Source of the DNA: Vulcanimicrobiota bacterium
GTDB taxonomy: Bacteria; Vulcanimicrobiota; Vulcanimicrobiia; Vulcanimicrobiales; Vulcanimicrobiaceae
Assembly (NCBI GenBank): GCA_963795855.1
Contig: CAWCIZ010000002.1
Coordinates: 224,001-288,000, forward strand
Length of the DNA stretch: 64,000 nucleotides
Direction: 5' to 3'
Shown: piece by piece, positions 24,001 to 51,000 of the stretch
Numbering within the stretch: position 1 is the first letter of the stretch
Layout: the number at the start of each line of letters is the position of its first letter
Position numbers: made by a program

Positions 24001-27000
24001 TACGGCTGCCGGCAAATGATCGGCAACGTCTGGGAGTGGACTTCGAGCCCGTTCGGGCCATATCCAGGGTTCGCGGCCGATCCATACAAAGAGTATTCGG
24101 AGCCATGGTTCGGCACGCATTACGTCCTGCGGGGCGGTGCATGGCCGACGCGCTCGCGACTGATAACGACTCGCCGCCGCAATTTCTACCGGCCGCATCG
24201 CCGGGACGTCATCGCCGGTTTCCGCACCGTGAAGAAATAGGAGCACACGTGTCCGCCTCGCCGCTTACGCTCGAACGCGATCGCAACGCGAAAACCGTCT
24301 TCTGGGGCATCTTCATCACCGCCGTGATCTTTGCGGCGGGACTTTTCATCGTGAAGTGGTCGCCGTACTGGCATAAAGCGCACGTGGCTGCGTCCACGCA
24401 CGCCATCGGCTACTCCATCGTCAGCGGTAAAAGCATTCAGCCCGAAGCCGTCGGCCTGCACGCGGCGTGGTCGTACACGCTCGCGTACTTCAAAGCGGTG
24501 TGGGAAGCGGTCGCGCTCGCGCTGCTCCTCGGCGCGTCCGTGCAAGCATTCGTGCCGCGTGCTTGGCTGCTGCGCGCCATCGGAAAAGCGTCGCCGCAAT
24601 CCGCGGCAGTCGCTGCAGCAGGTTCCATGACGACGATGATGTGCACGTGCTGCACCGGTCCAATCGTGGTCGGTCTGCGCCGCCAGGCCGTTGCCGCGGG
24701 AAGCGCGCTCGCGTTTTTCCTCGGGAATCCCGTCCTCAATCCCGCGACGCTGATCTTCATCGGTTTCGTGCTGGGCTGGCAATTCGTAACGTTGCGCATC
24801 GTCCTCGGACTGATTCTGGTCTTTTCCGTTGCGATGATTGCGAACGCGATGGCGGGCGAAAGTCCGCGAACGCCGCAAGTCGAGCTTTCGGCGGTCGAAT
24901 CGCAGCCGCACACGTTCGGGGCGATGTTCAAGGCGTGGCTGCGGGAACTCTGGATCGAGGCATACACGATTCTGCCCGGGTACATCATCATCGTCTTCAT
25001 CGTCGGCGGCGTTCGCGCGTGGCTTTTCCCGCCCGGACTCGCGCTGCACGCGTCGGGAATCGCTTCCGTCGTCGGGCTCTCGCTGCTCGGCACGATTTTC
25101 GTGATTCCGACCGCCGGCGAAGTACCGATCATTCAAACACTCATGCATGCGGGCATGGGCACCGGGCCTGCCGCCGCATTGCTGATGACGCTTCCGGCCG
25201 TCAGCGCGCCGTCGCTCTACATCGTGCGCAACGTTTTTTCTGCGCGCGCGCTCGGTATGACCGCGGCGGCGGTGTTCGTCTGCGGCATCGTCGCAGGCGT
25301 TATTGCGATGCTGTCCATGCACGCGTAAAGCACGTATGCCGATCGATCCGTACGCGATCTTCGAGCGGGCGCGCGAAGCGTGGGCGATGCAGCGCTATCC
25401 GGCCGTGGTGGCGTACACGGTCGACGTCTCGGCGACGCCTGCGGACGGCGCGCCGGCGGAGCGTCATTACCACGAGTACTGGTCGGCATCCACCGGCCGG
25501 GTGTTCATTAAGCCGCCGATCAGCGACGAGCAACTCGAGCATCCGTATAAGCCGTCGCCCGGCGTGAATTTCATGGGCTGGAATATCGGCGGACCGAAGG
25601 CCGGAGGCGGCGCGACGGACTTCATCGGACCGCCGCTTCTCGCACCGAATTACAGTTTCGGCGTCAGCCCGTACGTGCCGCCCTCGCAACTCACCCCGGC
25701 GCAAATCGTCGAGCAGATTCGCCGCGACTACCACGATCCCGCGCCCGCAAAAATCAATGCGCTCGAGCAGAAATACGGCCTGAAGACGATCGCGCTGGTA
25801 ACCAGCTCCCGCGCGCGCCTATCGTATATCGCTGGTGGGCATCGAGGGCGGCGACTACGGCCGCACCTATCATCTCTCCCTCCAACCCGTGGAGGATCCG
25901 CTCAAATACCGCCTGCGCGACCTGTGGGTAAACGCGTCCACGTATGTAACGGAACGCGCGCGCATCGGCGCCAATTTTACCGATGCCGCGACCGAAAAGG
26001 TGCCGTGGACGGTGCGCTTTCAGCAAATCGACGGCGCGACGTACATTGCGAAGGAATTTGCGGAACAGCCCATCGTCGGCTATCACGGACTGATGTATTC
26101 GCGATACAGCGTTTCGTTCGGCGTACCGTCTGCGGGCGCGCTGCCGGCATATGCGCAGATTACGTCGCTGAGCGAGCCGCTGGAGGAACCGTAGCGTTCG
26201 GCGCAGATGGAAAAGGGCGGCGCTGTTGCGCCGCCCTTTTCGTTTCACCGGCTAGAGGTCGTCAGGGTTGATGCCCCGGTAGCCCGTCTTGTCGTATTGC
26301 GTCTTCTTCGGCGGAGCATGCACGTTGACGTGGTCCTCGTACTCGCCCTCGTACTGCACCGTCGCCGGCTCGCGCGTGCGATCGTACGCGCTCACCAGTT
26401 TCTGCATGCCTTCGCCGCCGCTCATCACTTCGGCGAGCGCCGCGTCGTCCGCGGACATGCCTTCGTACAGCGACGCCTCGAACGCGTTGCGCGGACGCCC
26501 GTCGTCGTCCAGATCTTGCCCTTCCGGTTCGATCTGCAGATTCCGGTAGCGCGACATACCCGTACCGGCCGGGATGAGTTTGCCGATGATGACGTTCTCT
26601 TTCAAGCCGAGCAGCGGATCGTGTTTGCCCTTGATGGCCGCGTCGGTAAGCACGCGCGTCGTCTCTTGGAACGACGCCGCCGACAGGAACGATTCCGTTG
26701 CCAGCGATGCTTTCGTAACGCCGAGCAGCACCGGTTCCGCTTCCGCCTTCTGCCCCTCCGCGCCGAGCTTCTCGTTGGACTCGTTGAAGTACGAGGCCTC
26801 GACGAGCTGTCCGGGAAGGAGATGCGTGTCGCCGCCGTCGCGGATCTTCACCTTGCGAAGCATCGAACGCACGATCACCTCGATGTGTTTGTCGTTGATG
26901 TCGACGCCCTGCGAGCGGTAGACTTTCTGCACTTCCTGAACCAGGTAGTTCTGCAGCGCGGTCTCACCCTTGATGCGCAGGATGTCGTGCGGGTTGAGGG

Positions 27001-48000: not shown

Positions 48001-51000
48001 TTCGATCGGACAAATACGGCCGTAGTGCGAGTGATGAACGTCGCGCACTTCGAAGCCCGCGCGTTCCCGCGAGAGGCCGCCGGGCCCAAGTGCCGAGAGA
48101 CGGCGCTTGTGCGTGAGTTCGGCGAGCGAATTCGTTTGGTCCATGAACTGCGAGAGCTGCGAGGAGCCGAAAAACTCTTTGATCGCCGCGACGACCGGAC
48201 GAATATTGATGAGCGCCTGCGGCGTGACGGTTTCGATGTCCTGAACCGTCATGCGTTCGCGCACGACGCGTTCCAGACGCAACAAGCCGACGCGGAATTG
48301 GTTCTGCAGCAGCTCCCCGACCGAGCGGATGCGGCGGTTGCCCGAGATGGTCGATGTCGTCCTTCGGAATGACGCCGGTGGCCACTTTGACGAGGCGGCG
48401 GATCACCGCGATCATGTCCTCGCGCGTCAGGCAGCGCTTCTCGATGGACGGCATCTCGAGCGAGACGTCCGCGTACTCGTCGATGAGCACCGTCGGCTGG
48501 TCCGCGCGCGCTTCGACGTCCGGATTTTCGATACGGTATTGGAACTTCGCGTTGAGTTTGTAGCGCCCCACGCCGGCGAGATCGTACCGCTTGTCGTCGA
48601 AGAACAGCGATTCGAGCAGCTTCTCCGCGTTTTCGGCGTTTTCGGGTTCGCCGGGGCGCAGCTTCTTGTAGATTTCCTTGAGCGCGTCTTCACGCGTCTT
48701 GATGTCTTTGTCTTTTTCGATCGAATTGCGGATCAGCGGCGACTCGTTGAAAAGCTCGAGGATCGCCTCGTCGCTCTCCCAGTTGTAGCCCATGTCGGGA
48801 CGCGAAAGCGCGCGCACGAACGTCGAGACGTAAATCTTGCGATTCTTGTCGATGCGTACGCCGATCGTGCCTTCCGTCTCGTCGTTCTTGGTGCCGTTGT
48901 CCGTTTCGAATTCGATCCACGCGCCGCGGTTCGGAATGATCGTCGCGTTGAAAACCGGACGGTTGTTCGTGTCGACGTCCTGGTTGTAGTACACGCCCGG
49001 CGAACGCACGAGCTGGCTGACGATGACGCGTTCGGCACCGTTGATCATGAACGTGCCGTTCTTGGTCATGAGCGGGAAGTCGCCCATGAAAATCTCTTGG
49101 TCCGGGATGCCTTTGATTTCGCCGGACTCCGCGGTGATGAGGCGTACGCGTACGCGCAGCGGCGCACTGTACGTCATGTCACGCTCGCGGCACTCCTCGA
49201 CCGAATACTTCGGTTCGCCGAGACTGTGCTCGCCGAACTCGAGCACGAGGTTGCCCGTGAAGTCTTTGATGGGCGAGATGGAAGCAAACGCTTCCGCGAG
49301 GCCTTCGGTCTTGAACCATTCGAAGCTGGCTTTCTGCAGCTCGATCAGGTTGGGGACTTCCAGGACGTGCGGAATCTTCCCGAACGAGTATCGCTCGCGC
49401 TTCGGACCGGGATCGGGGGGCTGCTCGATCGTGAACGCGCCGGTCGGCATCGGGAACGTGCTTGGCTGGATAGCCCCAGCCGCACCGTTGCCCGCCGTTT
49501 GACCGGCAGCGCGTTTCGACTTGCTCTTCGTGCCCGCGGAGCTCTTCGCGGGTGACTTAGGAGCCGTCGTTTTCGCCATTATCTATTTCTCTCTCAGCCA
49601 GGTAAATGAAGGTGGGCGCACTATGCCGCGGGCACGCGAAAAAGAACGAGACGTCCCTCCGAAATGAGCGGGGGCACTCGTTCTTCTTTATATATGCCTT
49701 ATCGGGCGCTGGGCATAGGCGACTAGTATAGCACCGCCCGGGAGGCCGTGCAAGGGTTAGCGCGTGCGGTGGATGACGTGGATGCGGACGCGTCCCCGAT
49801 CGCCCCGAAGGGCGGCGCCGACCATGAGGCCGACGATGCCGAGAACCGGCAGGACGGAGACCCAGAGGGCGACTACTTGCGTGAGATACGGGTGAGCGAA
49901 CGTCGAGGTTACCATAGTTGCTCCACATAACGCGCAAACGGCGCGATTGGATGCACCTATCGCGGCGCAGTATTTCGTCCAGCCGGCTCTGCGCCTGGGA
50001 TGCAATTTCGCGCACGATTTGCGATGCCGGCTTCACCTCGCGCAGCAAGCCCACCGATTGTCCCGCGTAGAGTTTCTCTTTCGGATCGAACTGCGACCGC
50101 GCTCGTTCGTCCGTCATGAGCGCGTCCTCGTTTCCGGTCCACCGTTCCAGAAACGGCGTGCGCAGCGCGCGAGCGCCGAACTCGTGCGGCCACGCTTTTC
50201 CGGTAACGCGATCGTACACGCGCGTGTAGATGGTTTGCGTTTCGTCGCCCGCACGAAGCCGTTCGCGCGCGTTTTCCGTATTGCGCGCTTCTTGCGCGAG
50301 CAGAAAGGGCGTGCCGATCCAAGCGCCGCTCGCACCGGCCGCAACTACCGCGGCGAGTCCGCGTCCGGTTGCGATTCCGCCCGCCGCCAAAACCGGTTTC
50401 TCGGTCATCTCGAGCACGATTTGCAGCAGCGGCAGCGTGCCGACCGCCGAGCCTGCATGACCGCCCGCTTCGGTGCCTTGCGCGACGAGCATGTCGACGC
50501 CGGCATCCAGAGCGATCTGTGCCCACGCGCGGCTTTGCACTTGCGAACAAAGACGTATGCCGGCCGCGTGAACGCGTCGCGCGTATGGGGCGGGATCGCC
50601 GAATGAAATGCTGATCAGGTTCGGTTTCGCCGCTAACGCGATATCGAGCAGCTGCGGGCGGCGTTCGAGCACCCAGGCGACCAACCCGATCCCGAACGGC
50701 ACGGCCGGCGCTTGTTGTAAAATTTCGATTTGCTCGGCGATTTGCGCTTCGTTTTCGTCTTCATCGAAGCCGAGCATGCCGAATGCGCCGGCCTCGCTGA
50801 CTGCGCGCGCGAGCGCTCCGCCGGCCTGCGGCGTCATCGGCGCGTTCACGATGGGGACGCGAATCCCGAACAAGTCGCACAGCGCCGTCTTCATCTCACG
50901 TCATCCCGCATGAGGATGAGCGAGTTCTATTCCGCTGAGGTAAGGAACCTCTGCGCGGGCACGAACGCAGCCAGGCCGATGATCGCCGGGCGTTGTGCGG

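Follow-up and report, generated by a model that had tools for sequence, protein, structure and literature searches.

Organisation of the rpoB and rpoC genes

The window, a stretch of 64,000 nucleotides from a genome of the family Vulcanimicrobiaceae (contig C2, positions 224,001 to 288,000), carries the genes for the beta and beta' subunits of RNA polymerase on its minus strand (Table 1), each present once in the genome (G000) according to tblastn. Sequences in the 90% cluster of the window's RpoC carry the label 'Candidatus Baltobacteraceae bacterium', a name which we take to be equivalent to Vulcanimicrobiaceae. The rpoB stop and the rpoC start are 15.6 kb apart. Further out, 117 kb separate rpoB from rplL, which is upstream at C2:390.7 kb, and rpsL is found at C2:148.2 kb, approximately 102 kb downstream of rpoC; all four genes are on the minus strand and retain the ancestral order. 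In five other genomes rplL and rpoB are separated by 60–100 kb or more.

Alignment to the congener G005 places two single-base errors in rpoB, +1 at ~48347 and -1 at ~46304. These breaks are most likely sequencing errors, since the rpoB frames of two congeners are intact (1313 residues in G002, 1314 in G005) and the TPP-enzyme and FAD-oxidase genes of the spacer are also in pieces. The genome-wide survey's note had described an rpoC gene at this position and strand, an rpoB gene in three pieces through frame errors at a distance of 15.5 kb, rplKAJL 117 kb off, and intervening genes for transporters, a TonB receptor, a TPP enzyme, oxidoreductases and a GerE regulator; all of this agrees with the present analysis. 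The note's figure of 19 intervening genes counts fragments produced by frameshifts. The frame errors might suggest that the separation is itself a product of noisy long-read assembly. However, G002 and G005 have the same spacer genes in synteny, so the split is not an assembly artefact, and the same split is found in more than 100 genomes; the probability of an artefact is negligible.

Table 1. Features of the rpoB–rpoC region, in window coordinates
Feature	Position	Strand	Description
Intrinsic-terminator-like hairpin after rpoC	26210..26241	-	z -5.8
rpoC (beta' subunit)	26252..30043	-	single intact ORF, 1263 aa, GTG start
R1 leader hairpin upstream of rpoC, ~55 nt	30079..30135	-	covariation; invariant 2x2 internal loop
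rpoC promoter (predicted)	30162..30210	-	-35 TTGTTT (30210-30205), 17 nt, -10 TACAAT (30187-30182)
Whole rpoB–rpoC spacer	30211..45630		inherited core and genus-level cargo
Inherited spacer core: NAD_binding_2 dehydrogenase, ~146-aa unknown gene, alpha/beta hydrolase	33018..35306	-	Pfam and homologs
Small spacer gene	37481..37972	+	common to genera g6, g48, g53, g54 and g61 (tblastn)
Terminator-like GC-rich hairpin	45631..45652	-	10 nt past rpoB stop; z -2.9; U tract weak on this strand
rpoB (beta subunit)	45662..49579	-	three reading frames; long acidic C-terminal tail
rpoB 5' leader, 139 nt	49580..49718	-	hairpin then U tract (about 49690-49636); attenuator-like
rpoB promoter (predicted)	49705..49753	-	-35 TTGCAC (49753-49748), 17 nt, extended -10 TGc TATACT (49730-49725)

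Predicted promoters of rpoB and rpoC

Both genes are preceded by a predicted promoter of the same design. Ahead of rpoB, the -10 element is followed after 6 nt by a start-region motif, CTATGCCC, from 49718; this arrangement is conserved across family loci as well as in the sister families f2 and f3, and we infer promoter activity of the site from its sequence. The rpoC element likewise has a motif, CTGTGCCC, 6 nt after its -10 (from 30175). It is found in 66 of 66 family loci, representing 52 genera (58 by a strict pattern and 8 by a relaxed one), with a spacing between -10 and motif of exactly 6 nt in every case, while 27 loci from outside the family gave a single, chance-like match. Among all family loci read, the constant feature is this predicted promoter of rpoC's own and not the length of the gap.

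The relation between the two sites was assessed with a matrix trained on the rpoC promoters of 51 other genera and run over 3.06 Mb of G000. The rpoB promoter ranked first (39.6 bits) and the rpoC promoter second (32.9 bits), with the next site at 19.0 bits; as the training sites had been chosen by pattern, the result is circular for the rpoC match, but not for the rpoB match. With a matrix trained on rpoB promoters, the rpoB promoter was the best site in the genome and the rpoC promoter only the third, at 15.7 bits. A generic promoter scan called neither, and a loose pattern lacking the -35 element was set aside as uninformative, having many matches across the genome. On these scores the predicted rpoC promoter is a twin of that of rpoB.

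Leader RNAs

The rpoB leader has an attenuator-like layout that appears similar by eye in 14 aligned leaders, and its fold as a single sequence has a z of -2.8. A consensus structure did not emerge for this leader, covariation of its pairs did not exceed that of controls, and no Rfam match was obtained.

Upstream of rpoC lies a conserved hairpin, R1. It occurs as a single copy in 68 of 141 genomes, less than 200 nt upstream of rpoC in all 60 cases that could be placed (the 8 further matches had no rpoC coordinate), and ends 27–81 nt before the rpoC start. Fifteen columns are invariant over 39 sequences. Seven of its 14 pairs change on both sides, which none of 500 shuffles reached, and 97% of the alignment cells are paired, above both shuffles and slid controls, although these sequences are kin and not independent, and covariation among kin may exceed shuffles without structure. 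The window copy alone folds no better than shuffles (z -1.0), the support coming from covariation. R1 matches none of 4227 Rfam families. As a single-copy element in the 5' leader of one gene, with a structure backed by covariation, it is a putative cis-regulator. R1 is restricted to one subclade (B); subclade A, g48 and g61 lack it, and it therefore cannot be a family-wide balancing device.

Extent of the break within the Vulcanimicrobiaceae

The family was sampled through 201 genomes, 82 of which gave no paired coordinates; among the matches listed, 109 were decidable, and genes lie between rpoB and rpoC in 108 of these. In the sister family, the rpoB stop is ~6 nt from the rpoC start, and the pair is adjacent in most of the phylum. 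The proposal that the break is family-wide is therefore upheld, while the description of the genes as 'unlinked' goes too far. Among the matches listed, both genes share a contig in 81 genomes, and 74 of these keep the same order and strand, with gaps of 0.75–72 kb (median 9.5 kb); the remaining 7 are inverted. The gap is within 1.6 kb in 8 of the 81. Only one of them, G065, has no gene between the two, and its 214-nt gap holds a hairpin and a predicted promoter. The near-adjacent genera might be regarded as basal relics. This was ruled out for G065, as a tree placing it outside all other family rows was rejected (p-AU 6e-8), and g53 and g57 are, like G065, nested among split genera.

Inversion is seen in three genera. 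In one genome of each, both genes point away from dnaA, and their distances from it are similar (1300/1340, about 1420/1350 and 1150/1240 kb). Since terminus-symmetric inversions commonly move genes of any kind, the equal dosage could have arisen without selection on rpoB and rpoC. In five genomes the two genes sit at ~82–90% of the distance between dnaA and the terminus, a location that differs from that in fast growers.

The survey's note also held that beta and beta' are made from separate transcripts. The predicted rpoC promoter and the hairpin after rpoB, which is strong in many family loci but not all, point in this direction. In genus g36 no hairpin follows rpoB: a gene begins directly after its stop codon, and three genes on the same strand lead on to rpoC, a layout that leaves read-through possible. 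Read-through could be extended to the family as a whole, the locus then being one long operon that has absorbed genes and still co-transcribes the pair. This is very improbable given the opposite-strand genes of the window spacer, the terminator-like hairpins of many genera and the 7 inverted genomes.

Content and origin of the spacer

The window spacer combines the inherited core with cargo specific to the genus: a GerE regulator, DUF1275, an FAD oxidase/Fe-S gene, a TPP enzyme, a TonB receptor, CitMHS/ArsB and DUF4097. About 12 genera of subclade B have homologs of the core, placed either between the two polymerase genes or immediately upstream of rpoC. The small spacer gene is also present in g53, which shows the 1.1-kb spacer of that genus to be a remnant of the inherited one. 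The subclade A spacers examined (g18 and g57) have no genes common to each other or to subclade B.

It is a real possibility, if short of an even one, that promoter gain alone is ancestral, the gap having arisen through many independent insertions of which G065 never received one. The unrelated spacers of g18 and g57, the presence in G065 of promoter and hairpin with no spacer gene, and gap sizes spanning two orders of magnitude are consistent with this. In subclade B, however, ~12 genera have the three-gene core and six have a second gene in common, and with G065 and g57 nested among split genera, retention of the original state by G065 would need many parallel insertions. The survey's view that the break is ancestral has good support as regards the promoter gain and the subclade B spacer; the physical gap of subclade A lacks such support.

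In another route to the same arrangement, known as the SNAP model, the rpoBC region would have been duplicated in tandem and then have undergone reciprocal loss, so that the rpoC promoter would be a literal copy of that of rpoB. The order and strand kept in 74 of 81 genomes and the twin promoters would both be expected, and the rpoC leaders of subclade A open like rpoB leaders, with the same hairpin-plus-U layout. A weak hint in the same direction comes from a CitMHS/ArsB gene (46% identity) that lies downstream of rpoC in G065 but upstream in genus g1. Nevertheless, the 7 kb flanking rpoBC, in f2 as in f3, gave no match to any spacer gene cluster; the core dehydrogenase is ~100 kb away from rpoBC in G020, and in G018 the two are on different contigs; and the likeness is explained equally well by a short local promoter copy or by convergence under a single regulator. 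We regard duplication and loss as rather unlikely.

Breaks elsewhere in Bacteria

A break between rpoB and rpoC was found in none of 79 random bacterial loci, from a sample of 120 in which 40 with only 300-nt flanks were left out and one (L072) was too short. The family had been put forward as a natural exception; the break is indeed rare, but it is not unique to Vulcanimicrobiaceae. A second family of the same phylum, f18, is split in genera g102 and g104, one class of Chloroflexota in 25 of 46 decidable genomes, and Patescibacteria in 2 of 42. In these groups the break affects only some members of the family or class, and most of the separated pairs are widely spaced or on different contigs, whereas in Vulcanimicrobiaceae it extends through the whole family and the two genes mostly lie within 20 kb. 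In the Chloroflexota splits rpoC has its own sigma70-like promoter and a leader hairpin; no twin promoter is evident in the f18, Chloroflexota or Patescibacteria splits. Aquifex was considered as a further case from its gap-like locus numbers (1939/1945) and set aside, as the portion of the source consulted treats the genes as one operon (PMC2584045). In the literature searched, which included few subscription journals, no title or abstract opening reported a bacterial rpoB–rpoC break.

These cases bear on whether the pair is coordinated at all. Slow growth may have weakened selection on it, leaving ordinary housekeeping promoters and degradation of surplus subunit. The location of the genes far from dnaA, unlike that in fast growers, would fit, as would the opening of the rplL–rpoB and rpoC–rpsL junctions and the recurrence of the split in other slow-growing lineages with no obvious twin promoter. 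The promoter signature common to rpoB and rpoC, to which no other G000 site comes near in score, and the 15 invariant columns of R1 argue against it, and we consider it quite unlikely.

A probable stepwise route to two transcription units

The reading that we think probable is that rpoB and rpoC form two transcription units, separated stepwise, with twin promoters and leaders balancing supply. By comparison with the sister families f2 and f3, where rpoBC already has its own promoter and lies away from rplL, detachment from rplL would have come first. In the family ancestor, rpoC would then have gained a promoter of the rpoB design and a terminator would have arisen after rpoB; the elements are present in the sequence and their function is predicted. 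Subsequently, the freed junction took in genes (about 0.7–72 kb) and, in three genera, became the breakpoint of an inversion, the gap of a few lineages being short again or still. As to balance, the twin promoters may equalise initiation and let both genes respond alike to growth state, and equal distance from the origin may provide equal gene dosage. The leaders (attenuator-like for rpoB; R1 for rpoC in subclade B) most likely give feedback by free subunit or polymerase, and any excess subunit would be turned over.

A more specific version, which we hold to be doubtful, is that a dedicated two-gene regulon replaces the operon: a promoter class specific to RNA polymerase would have been copied from rpoB to rpoC, and the R1 loop would bind free beta', or an assembly intermediate, and thereby shut off beta' synthesis. 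If true, this would be a natural autogenous circuit on beta' alone.

The side-by-side placement of rpoB and rpoC is regarded as nearly universal, the usual explanation being that the subunits are needed in equal amounts and assemble co-translationally. A large family of soil bacteria, with more than 200 species but without this placement, makes that explanation testable, and the split pair offers a way to examine, in nature, how two separately made subunits are kept in balance. Every stage is visible, from coupling in the sister family through adjacency with a separate promoter to small and large spacers and inversions. The twin promoter and the R1 leader provide specific candidates for the operon's replacement, and the other splits indicate a break that is rare but repeatable, which opens a comparison across independent cases. 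A cultured Vulcanimicrobium exists (PMC9758169).

Comparison with known systems

The canonical rplKAJL–rpoBC operon of E. coli, Vibrio and Salmonella contains the same orthologs, and the order rplL, rpoB, rpoC, rpsL on one strand is kept in G000, G005 and G021. Here, however, all three junctions (rplL–rpoB, rpoB–rpoC and rpoC–rpsL) have opened, rpoC does not directly follow rpoB, rplL is far removed, and rpoB and rpoC each have a predicted promoter. Leader RNAs are known for RNA-polymerase and ribosomal-protein genes, such as the E. coli rplL–rpoB attenuator and the rpoB motifs of Rfam. R1 resembles these in its 5' leader position, single copy, conserved internal loop and covarying stems, but differs in lying ahead of rpoC instead of rpoB and in belonging to no Rfam family.

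The same pair has been rearranged in the opposite sense in the beta/beta' fusions (PRK09603/PRK14844 families), in which one ORF encodes both subunits; here there are two. Candidate fusions in the sister family, 'open frames' of 2530–2549 aa, proved on cutting out the loci to be two ORFs with a stop between them. The reported scattering of rpoB and rpoC in green-algal plastids is another rearrangement of this pair.

In the sections consulted of one preprint, the rpoBC locus is called universally conserved and no rpoB–rpoC break is listed (bioRxiv 10.1101/2025.04.14.645983), and excerpts of another study describe insertions between operons and not inside rpoBC (PMC6735719). The mycobacterial rpoB–rpoC genes are described, in the part of the source consulted, as a stand-alone operon with a conserved promoter region and feedback on polymerase supply (PMC6181997). 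As in that system, rpoB here is detached from the ribosomal protein genes and has, judging from sequence, its own promoter, and the CGCTAT-type promoter motif in the same excerpts resembles, by eye only, the gcCTATG start region (PMC6181997). The mycobacterial operon, by the same partial account, yields one transcript for beta and beta' from two tandem promoters, with upregulation by rifampicin (PMC6181997), whereas in Vulcanimicrobiaceae rpoC is not the second gene of the rpoB unit and the second promoter precedes rpoC. What appears to be new here is the family-wide predicted rpoC promoter, its twin relation to that of rpoB and the putative R1 leader hairpin.

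Separation of rpoB and rpoC

The genome holding the window, G000, carries a single copy each of rpoB and rpoC by genome search, and in the window a gap of 15.6 kb separates them. The spacer genes are found again in the congeners G002 and G005, so that the separation described in the genome-wide survey's note holds. The same note had placed rplKAJL far from rpoB, and rplL does lie 117 kb upstream; rpsL lies ~102 kb downstream. Both are on the same strand as rpoB and rpoC, indicating that the ancestral gene order has been kept while each junction has widened. The note's statement that rpoB is cut in three by frame errors agrees with an alignment to G005, which shows a one-base insertion in the window at ~48347 and a one-base deletion at ~46304; the rpoB frames are unbroken in both congeners. 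Similarly broken frames in the genes for a TPP-dependent enzyme and an FAD-oxidase/Fe-S protein are as expected from a noisy assembly. Members of the 90% cluster to which the window RpoC belongs carry the label Candidatus Baltobacteraceae, which we take to be a synonym of Vulcanimicrobiaceae.

Features of the rpoB and rpoC loci (window positions unless a contig or locus is named)
Feature	Position	Strand	Description
rpoC	26252-30043	-	single intact ORF, 1263 aa
R1 hairpin	30079-30135	-	rpoC leader
rpoC promoter-like site	30162-30210	-	twin promoter
TPP-dependent enzyme and FAD-oxidase/Fe-S genes	39099-43957	-	each over several frames
rpoB	45662-49579	-	spread over three frames
Beta tail	46220-45662	-	long, acidic
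rpoB promoter-like site	49705-49753	-	twin promoter
tRNA-SeC	C3:113848-113941 (G000)
Second rpoB of G228	G228:C14:29623-33837		highly divergent
Beta of genus g53	L021:4071-8456		~1460 aa
REP-like repeat carriers	L012, L030, L034, L188, L191, L212		rpoC leaders

The tail of beta past the VPESF motif is 169–196 residues long in 26 family loci (L001-L037), with ~37% D/E, and 175–192 residues in the sister family; the median in 49 random bacteria is 69. The acidic beta tail may mimic nucleic acid, as the delta subunit of Firmicutes does with its own tail. In genus g53, beta extends ~200 residues beyond its relatives and has a normal tail.

A search of 201 family genomes for rpoC and the rpoB end gave, among the 150 matches listed for each, 119 genomes with both positions. 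Both genes lie on one contig in 81 of these (37 genera). rpoB precedes rpoC on the same strand in 74 of the 81, where the distance between PF04560 and the rpoC start is 0.75–72 kb, with a median of 9.5 kb and 60 genomes at no more than 20 kb; the other seven, from genera g5, g17 and g75, have the genes on opposite strands, always convergent. In the 38 genomes with the genes on different contigs, adjacency is excluded in 28 by more than 2.5 kb of room, and ten are undecided. Genes therefore intervene in 108 of 109 decidable genomes, and the pair is separated across the family as the survey had proposed. The eight shortest gaps belong to G065 (214 nt, gene-free), two genomes of g57 (0.7–0.8 kb, one small gene) and five of g53 (1.1 kb, two opposite-strand genes in the three read). 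The only adjacent case, G065, is an unpublished genome, and the family counts include a few others (e.g. G122, G173, G042, G035).

History of the break

In a quick 86-row tree of RpoC, all family members form one clade (SH-aLRT 98) with family f2 as sister, followed by f3, and splits into two large subclades; genera g53, g55 and g57 are nested within it. A topology that forces G065 to branch before the rest of the family is rejected (32 rows, p-AU 6e-8). A spacer core of three genes is common to ~12 genera of subclade B, and a remnant spacer gene of g53 occurs in five other genera, which argues that the gap was inherited in this subclade. Among the few subclade A spacers read no shared genes were found, and here repeated insertion is a possible source of the gaps. 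In f2 and f3 rpoB appears from its sequence to have its own promoter already, and rplL is not among the closest ORFs tested upstream of it; in f3, rpsL-rpsG still lies within 3 kb of rpoC.

Promoters and leader RNAs

Of 66 family loci, 58 have TANNNT-N6-CT(A/G)TGC upstream of rpoC, 45 of them together with a TTG 17 nt ahead, and the remaining eight fit a relaxed form. The motif's one match in 27 outside loci falls within rpoB coding sequence. The rpoC leaders are 98–235 nt long, and the rpoC start codon is TTG or GTG in 42 of 58. The rpoB promoter has the same design. When a matrix built from one rpoC site in each of 51 other genera was scanned over both strands of G000, which is 86% complete, the rpoB promoter ranked first (39.6 bits) and that of rpoC second (32.9), the next site scoring 19.0; the reverse, rpoB-trained matrix ranked them first and third. 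The rpoC promoter may have arisen through regional duplication with loss, as a local copy or by convergence.

In subclade B a 55-nt element precedes rpoC in 40 loci found by pattern. Alignment of 39 gives 15 invariant columns and two helices flanking an invariant 2x2 loop. In the model of this hairpin, R1, seven of 14 pairs have changed on both sides, 97% of cells pair, and the covariation exceeds that of 500 shuffles and every slid control. Of 141 family genomes, 68 have R1, each as a single copy, and in all 60 for which the position of rpoC is known it lies <200 nt upstream of that gene. In five outgroup genomes no hit fell below E 0.08, and no Rfam family matched. Several rpoC leaders also contain a REP-like repeat (TTCGACAGGCTCAGGATGAC and variants) before or after R1. 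Subclade A rpoC leaders have, by eye, a hairpin and U-rich tract resembling rpoB leaders. The window rpoB leader folds strongly (z -2.8); covariation was sought in the rpoB leader alignment and was absent. Many family loci have a strong hairpin just after the rpoB stop, but genus g36 does not. In G065 a hairpin and a twin-type promoter both fit inside the 214-nt gap, so uncoupling needs no distance.

Breaks outside the family

The rplKAJL-rpoBC locus is described as widely or universally conserved in passages of several sources (PMC2584045; bioRxiv 10.1101/2025.04.14.645983; PMC6735719; PMC9758169; PMC6181997). These passages mention breaks between operons, the splitting of rpoC in cyanobacteria and the stand-alone rpoBC unit of mycobacteria, and none describes a separation of rpoB from rpoC. 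Literature searches of titles and abstract starts, with most subscription journals outside their scope, found no published bacterial rpoB-rpoC break.

Elsewhere in the phylum the pair is adjacent, by coordinates or fetched loci, in 41 genomes from 16 families, a count that leaves out eight (five of f5, three of f17) that look adjacent by merged frames only. In the sister family ~6 nt separate the rpoB stop from the rpoC start. A second, independent break in the phylum is that of family f18, in which eight genomes (genera g102, g104) are split and five of g103 adjacent. Split f18 loci L166-L169 and L172 share an rpoC-upstream motif, AGGAGTTT...AGGA...GCGATTCG, unlike that of Vulcanimicrobiaceae.

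A pattern scan of all genomes gave 120 loci, 80 with long flanks; in all 79 decidable loci the rpoB end directly precedes rpoC, with no split. Samples of other phyla gave 65 adjacent, none split and four undecided in Bacillota (n=69); 52 adjacent, one with ~2 kb extra (G526:C235) and eight undecided in Planctomycetota (n=61); 40, two split and 14 in Patescibacteria (n=56); and 53, six split and four in Chloroflexota (n=63). The Chloroflexota class holding the splits, perhaps Anaerolineae, has 25 split, 21 adjacent and 15 undecided genomes (n=61), the pair lying Mb apart in single-contig genomes. The break is thus rare but recurrent. The survey's natural exception is real and family-wide, and is richer than first described, but it is one of several independent breaks and not the sole exception.

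Among Patescibacteria loci L256, L260, L249 and L250, the pair is fully split in two and separated by ~0.6–0.9 kb in the other two. In Chloroflexota loci L221, L223, L225, L227, L233 and L234 rpoC, away from rpoB, has a near-consensus sigma70 promoter, and in five of the six the leader contains a common hairpin, GCAAGCGCTTGAG...AGCGCTTGCC, with a U-rich tract after it. A second rpoB in G228 (2627 bits on a fused beta/beta' model) is probably on a contaminant contig.

Subunit supply and gene position

Alongside the observed separation and gene order, the conserved promoter-like sites and the covarying R1 point to a scheme that is, as a whole, rather likely. rpoB and rpoC would be made as separate transcripts, the twin promoters would match initiation on the two genes, leader RNAs may exert feedback on supply, and surplus subunit would be turned over.

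With dnaA taken as a presumed origin marker, rpoB and rpoC in five genomes are ~82–90% of the distance from it to the terminus. In the three inverted genera they occupy different arms, about equally far from dnaA and each directed away from it, so that dosage parity is kept in every layout seen, though symmetric inversions are the common kind. In G005, G011, G021, G099 and G165, rpoB, rpoC, rplL and rpsL are all close to the presumed terminus and far from dnaA, the reverse of their placement in fast-growing bacteria.
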